Source: Escherichia coli
GTDB lineage: Bacteria > Pseudomonadota > Gammaproteobacteria > Enterobacterales > Enterobacteriaceae
Strand: one strand, 5' to 3'
Length of the DNA: 64,000 nt
Assembly: GCF_030013595.1 (NCBI RefSeq)
Contig: NZ_CP122768.1
Position 1 is the stretch's first letter, and each line of letters starts with the position of its first letter. This document shows, piece after piece, positions 25,337 to 37,688 of the stretch. Below the pieces are notes generated by a model. The model searched no databases, was not told the DNA's origin, and saw only the letters and a list, made by a program, of their open reading frames with translations. The translations under genes and the position numbers were made by a program.

Positions 25337-27139
25337 ATGGTGAACAATATGACCGACTTAACCGCGCAAGAACCCGCCTGGCAGACCCGCGATCATCTTG
25401 ATGATCCGGTGATTGGCGAACTGCGCAACCGTTTTGGGCCGGATGCCTTTACTGTTCAGGCGACTCGCACCGGGGTTCCCGTTGTGTGGATCAAGCGTGA
25501 ACAATTACTGGAAGTTGGCGATTTCTTAAAGAAACTGCCGAAACCTTACGTCATGCTGTTTGACTTACACGGCATGGACGAACGTCTGCGCACACACCGC
25601 GAAGGGTTACCTGCCGCGGATTTTTCCGTTTTCTACCATCTGATTTCTATCGATCGTAACCGCGACATCATGCTGAAGGTGGCGCTGGCAGAAAACGACC
25701 TGCACGTACCGACCTTCACCAAACTGTTCCCGAACGCTAACTGGTATGAGCGTGAGACCTGGGATCTGTTTGGCATTACTTTCGACGGTCACCCGAACCT
25801 GCGCCGCATCATGATGCCGCAAACCTGGAAAGGTCACCCGCTGCGTAAAGATTACCCGGCGCGCGCTACCGAATTCTCGCCGTTTGAGCTGACCAAAGCC
25901 AAACAGGATCTGGAGATGGAAGCCCTGACCTTCAAACCGGAAGAGTGGGGGATGAAGCGCGGAACCGAAAACGAGGACTTCATGTTCCTCAACCTCGGCC
26001 CGAACCACCCGTCGGCGCACGGGGCTTTCCGTATCGTTTTGCAGCTCGATGGCGAAGAGATTGTCGACTGCGTACCAGACATCGGCTACCACCACCGTGG
26101 CGCGGAGAAAATGGGCGAGCGCCAGTCCTGGCATAGCTACATTCCTTATACCGACCGTATCGAATACCTCGGCGGCTGCGTTAACGAAATGCCTTACGTA
26201 CTGGCGGTAGAGAAACTGGCAGGGATCACCGTGCCGGATCGCGTTAACGTCATTCGCGTAATGCTTTCTGAGCTGTTCCGCATCAACAGCCACCTGCTGT
26301 ATATCTCGACCTTTATTCAGGACGTCGGCGCGATGACGCCAGTGTTCTTCGCCTTTACCGATCGTCAGAAAATTTACGATCTGGTGGAAGCAATCACTGG
26401 TTTTCGTATGCACCCGGCGTGGTTCCGTATTGGCGGCGTAGCGCACGACCTGCCGCGCGGCTGGGATCGCCTGCTGCGTGAGTTCCTCGACTGGATGCCG
26501 AAACGTCTGGCGTCTTACGAGAAAGCGGCGCTGCAAAACACCATTCTGAAAGGTCGTTCCCAGGGCGTTGCCGCCTATGGCGCGAAAGAGGCGCTGGAGT
26601 GGGGCACCACTGGCGCGGGCCTGCGCGCCACCGGGATCGACTTCGACGTGCGTAAGGCGCGTCCTTATTCTGGCTATGAAAACTTCGACTTTGAAATCCC
26701 GGTGGGTGGTGGTGTTTCTGACTGCTACACCCGCGTAATGCTGAAAGTGGAAGAGCTGCGCCAGAGTCTGCGCATTCTTGAGCAGTGCCTCAACAACATG
26801 CCGGAAGGCCCGTTCAAAGCGGATCATCCGCTGACCACGCCGCCGCCGAAAGAGCGCACGCTGCAACATATCGAAACCCTGATCACCCACTTCCTGCAAG
26901 TGTCGTGGGGTCCGGTGATGCCAGCCAATGAATCTTTCCAGATGATTGAGGCGACCAAGGGGATCAACAGTTACTACCTGACCAGCGACGGTAGCACCAT
27001 GAGTTATCGCACCCGTATCCGTACGCCGAGTTATGCGCATTTGCAGCAAATTCCGGCGGCGATCCGCGGCAGCCTGGTGTCTGACCTGATTGTTTATCTG
27101 GGCAGTATCGATTTTGTTATGTCAGATGTGGACCGCTAA
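25337..27139 (+). CDS. nuoC: NADH-quinone oxidoreductase fused subunit C/D (600 aa from ATG 25337; alternative start ATG 25349 gives 596 aa)
   Basis: ORF 25337..27139; single polypeptide carrying both the NuoC-like and NuoD-like halves. Confidence 0.93.
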
Positions 27140-27141
27140 TT

Positions 27142-27642
27142 ATGCACGAGAATCAACAACCACAAACCGAGGCTTTTGAGCTGAGTGCGGCAGAGCGTGA
27201 AGCGATTGAGCACGAGATGCACCACTACGAAGACCCGCGTGCGGCGTCCATTGAAGCGCTGAAAATCGTTCAGAAGCAGCGTGGCTGGGTGCCGGATGGC
27301 GCGATCCACGCGCTCGCCGATGTGCTGGGTATTCCGGCGAGCGACGTCGAAGGCGTGGCAACGTTCTATAGCCAGATCTTCCGCCAGCCGGTTGGTCGCC
27401 ATGTGATCCGTTATTGCGACAGCGTGGTCTGTCACATCAACGGTTACCAGGGTATTCAGGCGGCGCTGGAGAAAAAGCTGAACATCAAACCAGGGCAAAC
27501 GACATTTGATGGCCGCTTTACGCTGCTGCCAACTTGCTGCCTGGGGAACTGCGACAAAGGGCCAAACATGATGATCGATGAGGACACTCACGCGCATCTG
27601 ACCCCGGAAGCGATCCCTGAACTGCTGGAGCGGTATAAATGA
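27142..27642 (+). CDS. nuoE: NADH-quinone oxidoreductase subunit E (166 aa)
   Basis: ORF 27142..27642; 2Fe-2S cysteines. Confidence 0.95.
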
Positions 27643-28976
27643 AAAACATTATCCGTACTCCCGAAACGCATCCGCTGACCTGGCGTCTGCGCGATGACAA
27701 ACAGCCAGTGTGGCTGGACGAATATCGCAGCAAAAACGGTTACGAAGGCGCGCGTAAGGCGCTGACCGGGCTGTCTCCGGACGAAATCGTTAATCAGGTA
27801 AAAGACGCTGGTCTGAAAGGGCGCGGCGGCGCGGGCTTTTCTACCGGCCTGAAATGGAGCCTGATGCCGAAAGACGAATCCATGAACATCCGTTACCTGC
27901 TGTGTAACGCCGATGAAATGGAGCCGGGCACCTATAAAGACCGCCTGCTGATGGAACAACTGCCGCACCTGCTGGTGGAAGGTATGCTCATCTCCGCGTT
28001 TGCGCTGAAAGCGTACCGTGGCTACATCTTCCTGCGCGGCGAATATATCGAAGCGGCAGTGAATCTGCGCCGTGCCATTGCCGAAGCCACCGAAGCAGGC
28101 CTGCTTGGCAAAAACATTATGGGAACAGGTTTCGATTTCGAACTGTTCGTCCATACCGGGGCTGGGCGCTACATCTGCGGTGAAGAAACAGCGTTAATCA
28201 ACTCCCTGGAAGGGCGTCGCGCTAACCCACGCTCGAAGCCTCCATTCCCGGCAACCTCCGGTGCATGGGGCAAACCGACCTGTGTCAATAACGTCGAAAC
28301 CCTGTGTAACGTTCCGGCGATCCTCGCTAACGGCGTGGAGTGGTATCAGAACATCTCGAAAAGTAAAGATGCTGGTACCAAGCTGATGGGCTTCTCCGGT
28401 CGGGTGAAAAATCCGGGCCTGTGGGAACTGCCGTTCGGCACCACCGCACGCGAGATCCTCGAAGATTACGCCGGTGGTATGCGTGACGGTCTGAAATTCA
28501 AAGCCTGGCAGCCAGGCGGCGCTGGCACCGACTTCCTGACCGAAGCGCACCTTGATCTGCCGATGGAATTCGAAAGTATCGGTAAAGCGGGAAGCCGTCT
28601 GGGTACGGCGCTGGCGATGGCGGTTGACCATGAGATCAACATGGTGTCGCTGGTGCGTAACCTGGAAGAGTTTTTCGCCCGTGAGTCCTGCGGCTGGTGT
28701 ACGCCGTGCCGCGACGGTCTGCCGTGGAGCGTGAAAATTCTGCGTGCGCTGGAGCGTGGCGAAGGTCAGCCGGGCGATATCGAAACACTTGAGCAACTGT
28801 GTCGATTCTTAGGCCCGGGTAAAACTTTCTGTGCCCACGCACCTGGTGCAGTGGAGCCGTTACAGAGCGCCATCAAATATTTCCGCGAAGAATTTGAGGC
28901 GGGAATCAAACAGCCGTTCAGCAATACCCATTTGATTAATGGGATTCAGCCGAACCTGCTGAAAGAGCGCTGGTAA
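27639..28976 (+). CDS. nuoF: NADH-quinone oxidoreductase subunit F (445 aa)
   Basis: ORF 27639..28976; overlaps the nuoE stop by 4 bp; FMN/NADH-binding GxGGAGF motif and [10 protein letters not shown] 4Fe-4S motif. Confidence 0.96.
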
Positions 28977-29028
28977 CCGAATTTCGATTAACGCTCAGTC
29001 TCTGACTGAGAAAACTGGAAGCATGCTA

Positions 29029-31755
29029 ATGGCTACAATTCATGTAGACGGCAAAGAATACGAGGTCAACGGAGCGGACAACCTGCTGGAAGCTTGTCTG
29101 TCTCTGGGCCTTGATATTCCTTACTTTTGCTGGCATCCGGCGCTGGGAAGCGTCGGTGCTTGCCGCCAGTGTGCGGTGAAGCAATACCAAAACGCGGAAG
29201 ACACGCGTGGTCGCCTGGTGATGTCCTGTATGACACCGGCTTCCGATGGCACCTTTATTTCCATTGACGACGAAGAAGCGAAACAGTTCCGTGAAAGTGT
29301 GGTCGAGTGGTTAATGACCAACCACCCGCACGACTGTCCGGTATGTGAAGAGGGCGGTAACTGCCATCTTCAGGATATGACTGTGATGACCGGACACAGC
29401 TTCCGTCGCTACCGTTTCACCAAACGTACCCACCGTAATCAGGATTTGGGGCCATTCATCTCTCACGAAATGAACCGCTGCATCGCCTGCTACCGCTGCG
29501 TGCGTTACTACAAAGATTACGCTGACGGCACGGATCTGGGCGTTTACGGTGCGCACGACAACGTCTACTTCGGTCGCCCGGAAGACGGCACGCTGGAAAG
29601 CGAATTTTCCGGTAACCTGGTCGAAATTTGCCCGACCGGCGTATTCACCGACAAAACGCACTCCGAGCGTTACAACCGTAAATGGGATATGCAGTTTGCG
29701 CCGAGCATCTGCCAGCAATGTTCCATCGGCTGTAACATCAGCCCCGGCGAGCGTTATGGCGAACTGCGTCGTATCGAAAACCGTTACAACGGTACGGTAA
29801 ACCACTACTTCCTCTGCGACCGTGGTCGTTTCGGTTACGGTTACGTCAACCTGAAAGATCGTCCGCGTCAGCCAGTACAGCGTCGTGGCGATGATTTCAT
29901 TACCCTCAATGCCGAACAGGCAATGCAGGGCGCAGCAGATATTCTGCGCCAGTCGAAGAAAGTGATCGGCATCGGTTCTCCGCGTGCCAGCGTAGAAAGC
30001 AACTTTGCGCTGCGTGAACTGGTGGGCGAAGAAAACTTCTATACCGGTATCGCTCACGGTGAGCAGGAACGTCTGCAACTGGCGCTGAAAGTGCTACGTG
30101 AAGGCGGCATTTATACTCCGGCACTGCGCGAAATCGAATCTTACGATGCGGTACTGGTGCTGGGCGAAGACGTTACCCAGACCGGCGCGCGCGTCGCGCT
30201 GGCAGTTCGTCAGGCGGTGAAAGGTAAAGCGCGCGAAATGGCGGCAGCACAGAAAGTGGCTGACTGGCAGATTGCGGCAATCCTCAACATCGGTCAACGT
30301 GCGAAGCATCCGCTGTTTGTTACCAACGTTGATGATACCCGTCTGGATGATATCGCGGCGTGGACTTACCGCGCACCGGTTGAAGATCAGGCGCGTTTAG
30401 GTTTTGCCATCGCCCATGCGCTGGATAACTCCGCGCCAGCGGTTGACGGTATCGAACCTGAGCTGCAAAGCAAAATCGACGTCATCGTGCAGGCACTGGC
30501 TGGTGCGAAGAAACCGTTGATTATCTCCGGGACGAACGCTGGTAGCGCTGAAGTGATTCAGGCTGCGGCTAACGTGGCGAAAGCCCTGAAAGGTCGCGGC
30601 GCTGACGTCGGTATCACCATGATTGCCCGTTCCGTCAACAGCATGGGGCTGGGCATTATGGGCGGTGGATCGCTTGAAGAAGCGTTAACCGAACTGGAAA
30701 CCGGACGCGCCGACGCGGTGGTGGTGCTGGAAAACGATCTGCATCGTCACGCTTCCGCTACCCGTGTGAATGCTGCGCTGGCTAAAGCGCCGCTGGTGAT
30801 GGTGGTTGACCATCAACGCACAGCGATTATGGAAACCGCCCATCTGGTACTTTCTGCTGCCAGCTTTGCTGAAAGCGACGGTACGGTGATTAACAACGAA
30901 GGCCGTGCCCAACGTTTCTTCCAGGTTTACGATCCGGCTTATTACGACAGCAAAACTGTCATGCTGGAAAGCTGGCGTTGGTTACACTCGCTGCACAGCA
31001 CCTTGCTGAGCCGTGAAGTGGACTGGACGCAGCTCGACCATGTGATTGACGCTGTTGTGGCGAAAATCCCGGAACTGGCAGGTATCAAAGATGCTGCGCC
31101 GGATGCGACATTCCGTATTCGTGGGCAGAAACTGGCCCGTGAGCCGCACCGTTACAGCGGTCGTACCGCCATGCGCGCCAATATCAGCGTTCATGAGCCG
31201 CGTCAGCCGCAGGATATTGACACCATGTTCACCTTCTCGATGGAAGGTAACAACCAGCCGACCGCGCACCGTTCGCAAGTGCCGTTTGCCTGGGCACCGG
31301 GCTGGAACTCCCCGCAGGCGTGGAACAAATTCCAGGACGAAGTGGGCGGCAAACTGCGCTTTGGCGATCCGGGCGTGCGTCTGTTTGAAACCAGCGAAAA
31401 TGGTCTGGATTACTTCACCAGCGTACCGGCACGCTTCCAGCCGCAGGACGGGAAATGGCGTATCGCGCCGTACTACCACCTGTTTGGCAGCGATGAATTG
31501 TCACAGCGTGCTCCGGTCTTCCAGAGTCGTATGCCGCAGCCGTACATCAAACTCAACCCAGCGGATGCCGCGAAGTTGGGTGTGAACGCGGGTACCCGCG
31601 TCTCCTTTAGTTACGATGGCAACACGGTCACGCTGCCGGTTGAAATCGCCGAAGGACTGACGGCAGGGCAGGTGGGCTTGCCGATGGGTATGTCCGGCAT
31701 TGCTCCGGTGCTGGCTGGCGCGCATCTTGAGGATCTCAAGGAGGCACAACAATGA
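29029..31755 (+). CDS. nuoG: NADH-quinone oxidoreductase subunit G (908 aa from [11 protein letters not shown] extends 2 codons further upstream)
   Basis: ORF 29023..31755; N-terminal ferredoxin-like Fe-S cysteine clusters. Confidence 0.95.
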
Positions 31756-32729
31756 GTTGGATATCACCGGAACTGATTGAGATCCTGCTGACCATCCTCA
31801 AAGCGGTGGTGATCCTGCTGGTGGTTGTCACCTGTGGGGCATTCATGAGCTTTGGCGAACGTCGCCTGCTGGGTCTGTTCCAGAACCGTTACGGACCTAA
31901 CCGTGTTGGCTGGGGCGGTTCGCTCCAGCTGGTCGCGGACATGATCAAGATGTTCTTCAAAGAAGACTGGATCCCGAAATTCTCGGATCGCGTCATCTTT
32001 ACCCTGGCACCGATGATTGCCTTTACCTCGCTGCTGCTGGCCTTTGCGATTGTGCCAGTCAGCCCAGGTTGGGTGGTTGCCGACCTGAACATCGGGATTT
32101 TGTTCTTCCTGATGATGGCCGGTCTGGCGGTCTACGCGGTGCTGTTTGCGGGCTGGTCAAGTAACAACAAATACTCGCTGCTGGGGGCGATGCGTGCTTC
32201 TGCGCAGACTCTGAGCTACGAAGTGTTCCTCGGGCTTTCCCTGATGGGCGTGGTGGCGCAGGCCGGTTCATTCAACATGACCGACATCGTCAACAGCCAG
32301 GCGCATGTGTGGAACGTCATCCCGCAATTCTTTGGTTTTATTACCTTTGCCATCGCGGGCGTGGCGGTGTGTCACCGTCACCCGTTTGACCAGCCGGAAG
32401 CCGAGCAGGAACTGGCGGATGGTTACCACATTGAATATTCCGGCATGAAGTTCGGTCTGTTCTTCGTGGGCGAATACATCGGGATTGTGACCATCTCTGC
32501 ACTGATGGTGACGCTGTTCTTCGGTGGCTGGCAAGGCCCGTTGTTACCGCCATTCATCTGGTTCGCGCTGAAAACCGCGTTCTTTATGATGATGTTCATT
32601 TTGATTCGTGCGTCGTTACCGCGTCCGCGTTATGACCAGGTAATGTCCTTCGGCTGGAAAATCTGCCTGCCGCTGACGCTGATCAACTTGCTGGTAACGG
32701 CGGCTGTCATTCTCTGGCAGGCGCAATAA
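31752..32729 (+). CDS. nuoH: NADH-quinone oxidoreductase subunit H (325 aa)
   Basis: ORF 31752..32729; overlaps the nuoG stop; membrane subunit. Confidence 0.95.
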
Positions 32730-32743
32730 GGGGCAATAAGACC

Positions 32744-33286
32744 ATGACCTTAAAAGAATTGTTAGTAGGTTTCGGCACCCAGATTCGTAGTATCTGGATG
32801 ATCGGCCTGCACGCGTTCGCCAAACGCGAAACGCGAATGTACCCGGAAGAGCCGGTCTATCTGCCGCCCCGTTATCGTGGTCGTATCGTTCTGACCCGCG
32901 ACCCGGACGGCGAAGAGCGTTGCGTAGCCTGTAACCTCTGTGCGGTAGCCTGCCCGGTCGGCTGTATCTCGCTGCAAAAAGCAGAAACCAAAGACGGTCG
33001 CTGGTATCCGGAATTTTTCCGCATCAACTTCTCACGCTGCATTTTCTGTGGCCTGTGCGAAGAAGCCTGTCCGACCACGGCGATTCAGTTAACCCCGGAT
33101 TTCGAAATGGGGGAATACAAGCGCCAGGATCTGGTTTACGAGAAAGAGGATCTGCTGATCTCCGGTCCGGGCAAATACCCGGAATATAACTTCTACCGGA
33201 TGGCAGGTATGGCAATCGACGGCAAAGATAAGGGCGAAGCAGAGAACGAAGCCAAGCCTATCGACGTCAAGAGCCTGTTACCGTAA
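32744..33286 (+). CDS. nuoI: NADH-quinone oxidoreductase subunit I (180 aa)
   Basis: ORF 32744..33286; two CxxCxxCxxxCP 4Fe-4S ferredoxin motifs. Confidence 0.95.
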
Positions 33287-33297
33287 GGAGAGGGGCA

Positions 33298-33852
33298 ATG
33301 GAGTTCGCTTTTTATATCTGTGGCCTGATAGCCATACTTGCGACCTTGCGAGTGATCACCCATACCAATCCGGTACACGCACTGCTGTACCTGATTATTT
33401 CGCTGCTGGCGATCTCTGGGGTGTTCTTCTCACTGGGCGCTTACTTTGCCGGTGCGCTGGAAATTATCGTCTACGCGGGTGCCATTATGGTGCTGTTCGT
33501 GTTCGTGGTGATGATGCTCAACCTGGGCGGTTCAGAAATTGAACAGGAACGCCAGTGGCTGAAACCGCAGGTGTGGATTGGTCCGGCGATTTTGTCGGCC
33601 ATCATGCTGGTGGTGATTGTTTACGCCATTCTCGGTGTTAACGATCAAGGTATCGACGGTACGCCAATCAGTGCTAAAGCAGTGGGTATTACGCTGTTCG
33701 GGCCTTACGTACTGGCGGTGGAACTGGCTTCTATGCTGCTGCTCGCGGGTCTGGTTGTGGCCTTCCACGTCGGTCGTGAAGAGCGTGCGGGTGAAGTGCT
33801 GAGCAATCGTAAAGACGACAGCGCGAAAAGAAAAACGGAGGAGCACGCATGA
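33298..33852 (+). CDS. nuoJ: NADH-quinone oxidoreductase subunit J (184 aa)
   Basis: ORF 33298..33852; membrane subunit. Confidence 0.94.
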
Positions 33853-34151
33853 TCCCCTTACAACATGGACTGATCCTCGCGGCAATCTTATTCGTTCTTG
33901 GCTTAACTGGTCTGGTTATCCGTCGCAATCTGCTGTTTATGCTGATTGGTCTGGAAATCATGATTAACGCCTCTGCGCTGGCCTTTGTGGTCGCCGGAAG
34001 CTACTGGGGCCAGACCGACGGTCAGGTGATGTATATTCTCGCCATCAGCCTCGCGGCGGCAGAAGCGAGTATCGGCCTTGCGCTGCTGCTGCAACTTCAC
34101 CGTCGTCGCCAGAACCTGAACATCGATTCAGTAAGTGAGATGCGCGGATGA
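33849..34151 (+). CDS. nuoK: NADH-quinone oxidoreductase subunit K (100 aa)
   Basis: ORF 33849..34151; overlaps neighbours by 4 bp on each side. Confidence 0.94.
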
Positions 34152-35989
34152 ACATGCTTGCCTTAACCATTATTTTGCCATTGATTGGCTTTGTCCTGCT
34201 GGCGTTCTCCCGTGGGCGCTGGTCTGAAAACGTCTCGGCGATCGTTGGCGTTGGCTCTGTAGGCCTGGCGGCGCTGGTAACTGCCTTTATTGGCGTCGAC
34301 TTCTTCGCTAACGGCGAGCAGGCATACAGCCAGCCGCTGTGGACATGGATGTCGGTAGGCGACTTTAACATCGGTTTTAACCTGGTGCTGGACGGCCTGT
34401 CGCTGACCATGCTTTCGGTGGTCACTGGTGTGGGTTTCCTTATTCACATGTACGCCTCCTGGTATATGCGCGGTGAAGAGGGCTACTCTCGCTTCTTCGC
34501 TTACACCAACCTGTTCATCGCCAGCATGGTAGTTCTGGTGCTTGCCGACAACCTGCTGCTGATGTACCTCGGCTGGGAAGGCGTGGGCCTGTGCTCCTAT
34601 CTGCTGATCGGTTTCTATTACACCGATCCGAAGAATGGCGCAGCGGCAATGAAAGCGTTCGTCGTGACCCGTGTGGGTGACGTGTTCCTCGCTTTCGCGC
34701 TGTTCATTCTTTACAACGAACTGGGCACCCTGAACTTCCGCGAGATGGTGGAACTGGCACCAGCGCACTTTGCTGACGGCAATAACATGCTGATGTGGGC
34801 GACGCTGATGCTGCTGGGCGGTGCGGTCGGTAAATCTGCGCAGTTGCCGTTGCAGACATGGCTTGCCGACGCGATGGCGGGCCCGACGCCTGTCTCCGCG
34901 CTGATCCACGCCGCAACCATGGTAACCGCGGGTGTCTACCTGATCGCCCGTACCCACGGCCTGTTCCTGATGACGCCGGAAGTTCTGCATCTGGTGGGCA
35001 TTGTTGGGGCGGTTACGCTGCTGCTGGCCGGTTTTGCCGCGCTGGTACAGACCGATATCAAACGTGTTCTCGCTTACTCTACCATGAGCCAGATTGGCTA
35101 CATGTTCCTCGCGCTTGGCGTACAGGCATGGGATGCGGCGATTTTCCACTTGATGACTCACGCGTTCTTTAAAGCGCTGCTGTTCCTGGCATCCGGTTCC
35201 GTCATTCTGGCCTGCCATCACGAACAGAACATCTTCAAGATGGGCGGTCTGCGTAAATCTATTCCGCTGGTTTATCTCTGCTTCCTGGTGGGTGGCGCAG
35301 CACTGTCGGCACTGCCGCTGGTCACTGCGGGCTTCTTCAGTAAGGATGAGATCCTCGCGGGTGCGATGGCGAATGGTCATATCAATCTGATGGTGGCAGG
35401 TCTGGTCGGTGCGTTTATGACCTCGCTCTACACCTTCCGTATGATTTTCATCGTCTTCCACGGAAAAGAACAAATTCACGCTCACGCCGTGAAAGGGATA
35501 ACTCACAGCCTGCCGCTGATTGTGCTGCTGATCCTTTCCACCTTCGTTGGCGCACTGATTGTACCGCCGCTGCAGGGCGTGCTTCCGCAAACGACGGAGC
35601 TGGCGCACGGCAGCATGTTGACCCTGGAAATTACCTCTGGCGTGGTCGCGGTGGTCGGCATTCTGCTGGCAGCCTGGCTGTGGCTGGGTAAACGTACTCT
35701 GGTGACCTCCATCGCCAACAGTGCTCCGGGCCGTCTGCTGGGCACCTGGTGGTACAACGCCTGGGGCTTTGACTGGCTGTATGACAAAGTGTTCGTCAAG
35801 CCGTTCCTGGGTATTGCCTGGTTGCTGAAACGCGATCCGCTGAACTCAATGATGAACATCCCGGCTGTCCTTTCCCGCTTTGCAGGTAAAGGTCTGCTGT
35901 TAAGCGAGAACGGTTATCTGCGCTGGTATGTGGCATCCATGAGCATCGGTGCGGTCGTGGTGCTGGCACTGTTGATGGTACTGCGTTGA
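34148..35989 (+). CDS. nuoL: NADH-quinone oxidoreductase subunit L (613 aa)
   Basis: ORF 34148..35989; antiporter-like membrane subunit. Confidence 0.95.
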
Positions 35990-36030
35990 GTTAAGGATTG
36001 TGGGCTTGCCCCTGGGCATATAAGAACGTA

Positions 36031-36065
36031 GGTCGGATAAGCCGCATTCGCGGTGCATCCGACAC
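36031..36065. repeat. REP-like palindromic element in the nuoL-nuoM intergenic region
   Basis: GGTCGGATAAGCCGCATTCGCGGTGCATCCGACAC resembles the REP/PU family core. Confidence 0.5.
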
Positions 36066-36152
36066 TACCCCCAATCCGAAGAGAATTTTCTGTCGTGAGA
36101 ATTCGTTGAAAATCCGGTCCTGACGGGACTTTTACAAGGAATAAAGATCGCC

Positions 36153-37682
36153 ATGTTACTACCCTGGCTAATATTAATTCCCTTTATCGGCGGCTTCCTG
36201 TGCTGGCAGACCGAACGCTTTGGCGTCAAGGTGCCGCGCTGGATCGCGCTGATCACCATGGGATTGACGCTGGCGCTGTCGCTGCAACTGTGGTTGCAGG
36301 GCGGTTATTCACTGACGCAATCCGCCGGAATTCCGCAGTGGCAGTCTGAATTCGACATGCCGTGGATCCCGCGTTTTGGTATCTCTATCCATCTCGCCAT
36401 TGACGGGCTATCGCTGCTGATGGTCGTGCTGACCGGTCTGCTCGGTGTGCTGGCGGTACTCTGTTCGTGGAAAGAGATCGAAAAATATCAGGGCTTCTTC
36501 CACCTCAACCTGATGTGGATCCTGGGCGGCGTTATCGGCGTGTTCCTTGCCATCGACATGTTCCTGTTCTTCTTCTTCTGGGAAATGATGCTGGTGCCGA
36601 TGTACTTCCTGATCGCACTGTGGGGGCATAAAGCCTCTGACGGTAAAACGCGTATCACGGCGGCAACCAAGTTCTTCATTTACACCCAGGCGAGTGGTCT
36701 GGTGATGTTGATCGCCATCCTGGCGCTGGTTTTTGTTCACTACAATGCGACTGGCGTCTGGACCTTCAACTATGAAGAGCTGCTGAATACGCCAATGTCT
36801 AACGGCGTGGAATATTTGCTGATGCTGGGCTTCTTCATCGCGTTTGCGGTGAAAATGCCGGTGGTACCGCTGCATGGCTGGCTGCCGGATGCGCACTCAC
36901 AGGCTCCGACCGCCGGTTCCGTGGACCTCGCGGGGATCTTGCTGAAAACCGCCGCTTACGGTCTGCTGCGTTTCTCCCTACCGCTGTTCCCGAACGCGTC
37001 GGCAGAGTTCGCGCCAATCGCTATGTGGCTGGGTGTTATCGGCATCTTCTACGGTGCGTGGATGGCCTTCGCCCAGACCGATATCAAACGTCTGATCGCC
37101 TACACCTCGGTTTCCCACATGGGCTTCGTGCTGATTGCTATCTATACCGGCAGCCAGTTGGCCTACCAGGGCGCGGTAATCCAGATGATTGCGCACGGCT
37201 TGTCGGCGGCGGGTCTGTTTATTCTCTGCGGTCAGCTTTATGAACGTATCCATACCCGCGACATGCGCATGATGGGCGGTCTGTGGAGCAAGATGAAATG
37301 GCTGCCAGCACTGTCGCTGTTCTTTGCGGTGGCAACGCTTGGGATGCCTGGCACCGGTAACTTCGTCGGCGAATTTATGATTCTGTTCGGCAGCTTCCAG
37401 GTTGTCCCGGTGATTACCGTTATCTCTACCTTTGGGCTGGTCTTTGCATCTGTTTATTCGCTGGCGATGTTGCATCGCGCTTACTTCGGTAAAGCGAAAA
37501 GCCAGATTGCCAGCCAGGAACTGCCAGGGATGTCGCTGCGTGAGCTGTTTATGATCCTGTTGCTGGTGGTGCTGCTGGTACTGCTGGGCTTCTATCCGCA
37601 GCCGATTCTGGATACCTCGCATTCCGCGATTGGCAATATCCAGCAGTGGTTTGTTAATTCCGTTACTACTACAAGGCCGTAA
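36153..37682 (+). CDS. nuoM: NADH-quinone oxidoreductase subunit M (509 aa)
   Basis: ORF 36153..37682. Confidence 0.95.
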   Translation: MLLPWLILIPFIGGFLCWQTERFGVKVPRWIALITMGLTLALSLQLWLQGGYSLTQSAGIPQWQSEFDMPWIPRFGISIHLAIDGLSLLMVVLTGLLGVLAVLCSWKEIEKYQGFFHLNLMWILGGVIGVFLAIDMFLFFFFWEMMLVPMYFLIALWGHKASDGKTRITAATKFFIYTQASGLVMLIAILALVFVHYNATGVWTFNYEELLNTPMSNGVEYLLMLGFFIAFAVKMPVVPLHGWLPDAHSQAPTAGSVDLAGILLKTAAYGLLRFSLPLFPNASAEFAPIAMWLGVIGIFYGAWMAFAQTDIKRLIAYTSVSHMGFVLIAIYTGSQLAYQGAVIQMIAHGLSAAGLFILCGQLYERIHTRDMRMMGGLWSKMKWLPALSLFFAVATLGMPGTGNFVGEFMILFGSFQVVPVITVISTFGLVFASVYSLAMLHRAYFGKAKSQIASQELPGMSLRELFMILLLVVLLVLLGFYPQPILDTSHSAIGNIQQWFVNSVTTTRP

Positions 37683-37688
37683 ATCGCC

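Follow-up and report, generated by a model that had tools for sequence, protein, structure and literature searches.

The nuoC gene in an Escherichia coli nuo operon of 13 cistrons: a continuous fusion of NuoC and NuoD

The analyzed DNA, hereafter the window, is a stretch of 64,000 nucleotides of Escherichia coli (RefSeq assembly GCF_030013595.1, contig NZ_CP122768.1). It carries a nuo operon located downstream of lrhA, and the gene under study, nuoCD, sits between nuoB and nuoE, as in the collinear locus of RefSeq. The assignment of the neighboring genes as NuoA, NuoB, and NuoE was supported by Pfam. The features of the operon and of nuoCD are listed below.

24122..39146, plus strand: nuo operon, nuoA-B-CD-E-F-G-H-I-J-K-L-M-N, 13 cistrons (ORFs and the collinear RefSeq locus)
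24122, 24581, 25337, and 27142, plus strand: starts of nuoA, nuoB, nuoCD, and nuoE (ORF map)
27639, 29023/29029, 31752, and 32744, plus strand: starts of nuoF, nuoG, nuoH, and nuoI (ORF map)
33298, 33849, 34148, and 36153, plus strand: starts of nuoJ, nuoK, nuoL, and nuoM, followed by nuoN at 37689..39146 (ORF map)
25337..27139, plus strand: nuoCD coding sequence (gene name nuoC), 600 codons and a TAA stop (PGAP/RefSeq call, ORF, NF008728, PDB 7p61_C)
25349..25351, plus strand: alternative and probably true start codon, the ATG of codon 5, giving the 596-aa form of the K-12 MG1655 annotation and UniProt
25349..25864, plus strand: NuoC domain (30-kDa, Nqo5, or NDUFS3-like; PF00329), limits mapped from PMC8357420; carries no cofactor and is needed for assembly and stability
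25748..25765, plus strand: codons of E138, E140, and D143 of NuoC; residues present, role from PMC7050243
25865..25981, plus strand: linker between the C and D domains, residues 177-215 of the 600-aa form (39 residues), mapped from PMC8357420
25886..25930, plus strand: linker helix contacting NuoB, mapped from PMC8357420
25982..27136, plus strand: NuoD domain (49-kDa, Nqo4, or NDUFS2-like; TIGR01962, PF00346, and Nqo4/NDUFS2 chains with E of about 1e-96 to 1e-103)
26018..26020, plus strand: His228 (H224 in UniProt), present; ligand of the quinone head group (PMC11627005)
26165..26167, plus strand: Tyr277 (Y273 in UniProt), present; ligand of the quinone head group (PMC11627005)
26321..26323, plus strand: Asp329 (D325 in UniProt), present; ion-pair partner of the His (PMC11627005)

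The preliminary description of this DNA counted 13 rather than 14 cistrons in the operon, and both the ORF map and the RefSeq annotation agree with that number: a separate nuoD was absent from the operon among the ORFs of the window as well as in the collinear RefSeq annotation. Of the 5,426 complete E. coli genomes, 5,423 contained the segment 24000-27700, in each case on the chromosome, and the segment was 100% identical to that of strain HCP5S3_I2. From nuoA to nuoF, the DNA of the same segment was about 98.5% identical to a genome of K-12 size.

The ORF listing of the window contained an ATG-started frame of 600 amino acids at 25337..27139 on the plus strand. Its direct translation held one stop codon only, the terminal one, and the two remaining plus-strand frames of the interval contained 24 and 25 stops. 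The chance of 600 successive sense codons, calculated from the base composition of the window, is about 9e-13. The DNA of the domain junction (25820-26060) was uninterrupted, and neither a stop codon nor a frameshift was seen when the sequence of the linker DNA (25865..25981) was read. The RefSeq coding sequence “nuoC, NADH-quinone oxidoreductase subunit C/D” has identical coordinates (14338..16140 of the collinear locus L001, with an offset of +10999).

A long open frame also exists on the minus strand, an ORF of 480 amino acids at 25607..27049, which could be proposed as the real gene. However, no Pfam family matched it at E <= 0.01, and the sense frame exactly matches a protein of solved structure, so that an antisense gene at this position is vanishingly improbable. 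The GC3 value of nuoCD is 0.67, and the antisense ORF is read as the “shadow” of a GC3-rich gene. A similarly long antisense ORF (34163..35608, 481 amino acids) lies opposite nuoL.

The domain search that had been proposed as a check of the translation gave matches to the 30-kDa and then the 49-kDa model of complex I, in the expected order. Residues 50-178 matched Pfam Complex1_30kDa (PF00329, E = 9e-43) and residues 329-600 matched Complex1_49kDa (PF00346, E = 2.5e-104); the corresponding NCBIfam models were TIGR01961 for NuoC (residues 49-176) and TIGR01962 for NuoD (residues 215-600, 590 bits). The model NF008728, “NADH-quinone oxidoreductase subunit C/D,” aligned residues 3-600 with positions 2-598 of its 598 and scored 1218.2 bits, the cut-off of this curated equivalog (NCBIfam; also PRK11742) being 840 bits. 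The translation was identical over 600 of 600 residues (1414 bits) to PDB chain 7p61_C, described as “NADH-quinone oxidoreductase subunit C/D” of E. coli complex I, and the 596-residue chain 7awt_D matched it from residue 5 on. In comparison with NuoCD of K-12 MG1655, 598 of the 600 residues were identical, the window having I561 instead of V and Y566 instead of F. The UniProt entry for K-12 NuoCD (b2286) is P33599. Thus, the earlier proposal that a single ORF of about 600 codons carries a NuoC-like and a NuoD-like half is borne out by the ORF itself, by the domain models, and by the identity with 7p61_C.

Two other families with related architecture were considered. The curated model of the NuoBCD triple fusion (NF009808) was rejected: it scored 710.5 bits, below its cut-off of 1156, its alignment began only at profile position 220, and nuoB is a separate ORF. 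The ORF might also be taken for HycE or HyfG, the fused large subunit of a membrane-bound [NiFe] hydrogenase (formate hydrogenlyase), since these paralogs share the same layout, a NuoC-like N-terminal domain fused to a NuoD-like C-terminal domain (PMC7050243), and since PDB chain 7z0s_E, “formate hydrogenlyase subunit 5,” matched with E = 7e-39. However, this match reached 137 bits versus the 1414 bits at 100% identity obtained for NuoCD, and the gene lies within a full nuoA-N operon, in the nuoB-nuoE interval, with no hyc or hyf context. In addition, CxxC cysteine motifs ligate the metal in the large subunits of [NiFe] hydrogenases, and no such motif occurs in the 600 residues, which contain four isolated cysteines only (IVDCV, GGCVN, SDCYT, EQCLN). 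A hydrogenase identity for this ORF is therefore next to inconceivable.

The identical protein forms one chain in cryo-EM models (PDB 7p61_C) and has already been visualized at a resolution of about 2 Å. In the description of the entire complex, NuoCD is listed with 596 residues, of which 1-172 make up domain C and 212-596 domain D, and residues 9-596 were built, the linker included (PMC8357420). These data bear on the possibility that the fusion is an artefact of sequencing or assembly, in which, for example, a missed base in the linker joined separate nuoC and nuoD genes. No evidence for such an artefact was found, and it is plausible in general terms only, as separate nuoC and nuoD genes are the state in most organisms (PMC7050243). 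The uninterrupted frame appears in the annotation of thousands of genomes that were assembled independently, the protein sequence of the linker is identical to that of chains traced as one polypeptide by cryo-EM, and colinearity extends through the linker in the orthologs of Salmonella, Enterobacter, Intestinirhabdus, and Rosenbergiella. An artefact is accordingly extremely unlikely, and the independent assemblies together with the chain traced through the linker exclude a stop codon or frameshift between the two halves, which the preliminary description had named as the finding that would overturn its reading.

The full-length score with NF008728, the presence of both domains in one frame, the position between nuoB and nuoE, and the quinone-site residues place the product among the NuoCD proteins. 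It is practically certain that 25337..27139 is the E. coli nuoCD gene, a natural fusion of the core subunits NuoC (30-kDa) and NuoD (49-kDa) of respiratory complex I, the proton-pumping NADH:quinone oxidoreductase, and no finding spoke against this identification. This fusion is already known and ordinary, and there is nothing new in the feature.

The nuoCD product was further compared with known systems. E. coli K-12 NuoCD (b2286; 7p61_C, 7awt_D, 7nyr, and 7z7s) shares the operon position, the linker, and the catalytic residues, and differs by two conservative substitutions and by an annotated start four codons apart. The domains are homologous to those of Thermus thermophilus (2fug and 4hea), Paracoccus (8qby), and mitochondria, where they have the same role at the quinone site; the separate-subunit chains matched the product with E of about 1e-96 to 1e-103 for NuoD and about 1e-21 to 1e-25 for NuoC. 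In these systems, the two domains are two polypeptides encoded by separate genes among 14 core subunits, whereas in E. coli they are joined by a covalent linker with a helix on NuoB. A natural fusion of C and D is also present in Aquifex aeolicus (7q5y_B, “subunit C/D 2,” 586 amino acids), which aligned with residues 96-600 of the query (E = 7e-101). The C and D modules are likewise fused in the NuoBCD proteins of NF009808, which aligned over residues 18-600. Both of these fusions belong to other lineages, and nuoB is a separate gene in the window.

The arrangement had been called a known enterobacterial one. That it is known proved right, but the limit to enterobacteria is too narrow, given its occurrence in clade E, Aquifex, and Bacteroides. 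The fusion is almost exclusive to the “clade E” complex I (Spero et al., PMC4453560), which is found in many Gammaproteobacteria and has reached some Alpha-, Beta-, and Deltaproteobacteria and Bacteroidetes by horizontal transfer (PMC4453560). E. coli and Aquifex aeolicus were named among the few bacteria with fused nuoC and nuoD and thus 13 subunits (PMC1959517), and a fused form was reported in Bacteroides fragilis (PMC3144371). Going by the reference to Friedrich (1998) given in PMC4453560, the fusion was noted in print by 1998 at the latest.

The view that annotations are commonly unfused found no support for this gene. All 12 annotation records in an even sample taken down the ranking of the 5,423 matching genomes read C/D, and so did all the named members of NuoCD length that were read in the NuoCD protein cluster (90% identity, 11,576 members). 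The 600-aa and the 596-aa sequences of NuoCD were each found on at least 1,000 contigs, both with C/D names; the K-12 annotation uses “subunit CD.” The original nuo sequence of 1993 reportedly gave 14 genes and is said to have been corrected later by Braun, Bungert, and Friedrich in 1998. The practical value of the present result lies in annotation, as the gene labeled “nuoC” is the whole C/D fusion. Consequently, no nuoD is missing, and tools that assess the completeness of pathways should count 13 genes rather than 14. The same 90%-identity cluster also lists members of 364 amino acids named “D-alanine--D-alanine ligase” (P0004 and P0010), which look like an oddity of database clustering or look-up and not like a feature of the window.

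The position of the start codon differs between annotations. PGAP places it at the ATG at 25337 (MVNNMTDL..., 600 amino acids), whereas nuoC of K-12 (b2286; 1791 nt, 596 amino acids) starts with MTDL..., 12 nt downstream of the PGAP start. The second ATG (25349) is preceded by GGTGA at 25339-25343, 5 nt upstream, whereas only a weak CGGA lies 9 nt upstream of the first ATG (25337). In addition, the Erwiniaceae orthologs begin at MTD.... On the basis of the GGTGA spacing and of these orthologous starts, the sequence would favor 25349 over 25337 as the start of nuoCD, a position on which PGAP and the curated K-12 annotation disagree. The structures leave the choice unsettled, as residue 9 is the first one in the cryo-EM models; the chain lengths in PDB are 600 residues for 7p61 and 596 for 7awt. 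Owing to the difference of four codons (600 versus 596 amino acids), residue numbers shift between papers and PDB entries, for example H224 and H228.

At the border of the NuoC and NuoD domains, a Shine-Dalgarno-like GAGGA (25973-25977) was observed 4 nt 5' of the ATG of Met216 (25982). Met216 and its surrounding motif were conserved in all the orthologs that were looked at. Judging from the sequence, this start may be a remnant of the ancestral start of nuoD, or the GAGGA may be a mere by-product, as the conserved Glu-Asp codons also dictate it. It is very unlikely that nuoCD would yield more than one product, be it some free NuoD from an internal start at Met216 or two N-terminal isoforms from 25337 and 25349.

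Translation of the polycistronic nuo mRNA would yield NuoCD as a single fused chain of about 68 kDa. The NuoC domain, which is free of cofactors, serves as a scaffold for the assembly and stability of the connecting module; residues E138, E140, and D143 of NuoC are conserved and were reported as necessary for the stability of NuoCD and of the complex (PMC7050243). The linker, which is about 35-39 residues long and contains one helix, packs against NuoB, and the NuoD domain together with NuoB builds the quinone cavity beside the Fe-S cluster N2. Electrons from N2 reduce the quinone bound near His228 and Tyr277. The aspartate numbered D325 in UniProt is protonated and deprotonated in the course of quinone chemistry (PMC11627005), and the change in protonation of this Asp329 is thought to set off proton pumping in the membrane arm.

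The requirement for the fusion was addressed in a published experiment, in which the splitting of nuoCD into nuoC and nuoD reduced the NADH oxidase activity to 4% of that of the parent (Skorupa et al., PMC7050243). The split strain also lacked the peak of NADH/ferricyanide activity that marks the assembled complex I (PMC7050243). Complementation of the split strain was partial, and polar effects on the operon were not fully excluded by the authors (PMC7050243). Thus, in view of possible polar effects, the existence of the fusion is more firmly established than its essential character. The paralogous HycE, which has a [NiFe] site, tolerates genetic splitting, whereas NuoCD, which has no metal site and binds quinone, did not (PMC7050243). 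We infer that the fusion may have been kept because it aids ordered assembly.

Several further features of the operon were recorded. The stop codon of nuoB (TAA, 25241-25243) is in frame with nuoCD, and the spacer of 93 nt consists of 31 open codons. A latent read-through to a NuoBCD product was considered and rejected; the shared frame was judged a coincidence, its chance being about 8% by our own estimate (1/3 × 0.95^31 ≈ 8%). Within the same spacer, an inverted repeat of 8 bp (CTGTCGGC/GCCGACAG) was noted, as was a small hairpin over the first ATG. A regulatory fold in this region (25238-25352) was also rejected: the predicted energy of -28.4 kcal/mol was not significant (z = -1.8), and 12 of 200 shuffled sequences were as stable. 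At 28979..29021, the Rfam “nuoG RNA” (RF01748), a known cis-regulatory motif, was detected with 50.3 bits (gathering score, 33) and occupies the 46-nt spacer between nuoF and nuoG. The longest spacer of the operon, with 163 nt, is that between nuoL and nuoM (35990..36152), where Rfam gave no match at the gathering threshold; the other gaps are from -4 to 93 nt.

Strains differ in the region that follows nuoN (39147..41228). In the window, yfbM follows 67 nt after nuoN, and yfbK is absent from the interval between yfbL (39820..40791) and elaD (41229..42404). Strain HCP5S3_I2, although 100% identical elsewhere, has a tnpA of the IS200/IS605 type downstream of nuoN, and in strain DSM 103246 this region contains three extra hypothetical genes, ISVsa5, and a yfbK pseudogene.

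The most unusual item in the window is unrelated to nuoCD and consists of a complete IS10 of 1,329 bp (59195..60523) next to arnB, with the following features.

58051..59190, minus strand: arnB
59186..60532: IS10 with the flanking target duplication
59240..59309: IS10 RNA-OUT (Rfam)
59302..60510: ORF of the IS10 transposase, 402 amino acids

The element is flanked by a target duplication of 9 bp, GACATTGCT, which overlaps the start codon of arnB. As the duplication includes this codon, IS10 lies upstream of the arnB ATG at a distance of 4 nt. The insertion separates the arn operon (L-Ara4N and polymyxin resistance) from its native Shine-Dalgarno sequence and promoter; the end of IS10 with the outward promoter (pOUT) faces arnB, and an ATG within IS10, in frame with arnB, lengthens the arnB ORF by 20 codons. 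The junction of IS10 and arnB was found in 0 of the 5,426 complete E. coli genomes searched, and no description of an IS10 insertion at arnB was apparent in the titles and abstracts of the top-ranked literature. Deletion of the element together with one of the two duplication copies in silico yielded exactly the unoccupied site present in strain DSM 103246.
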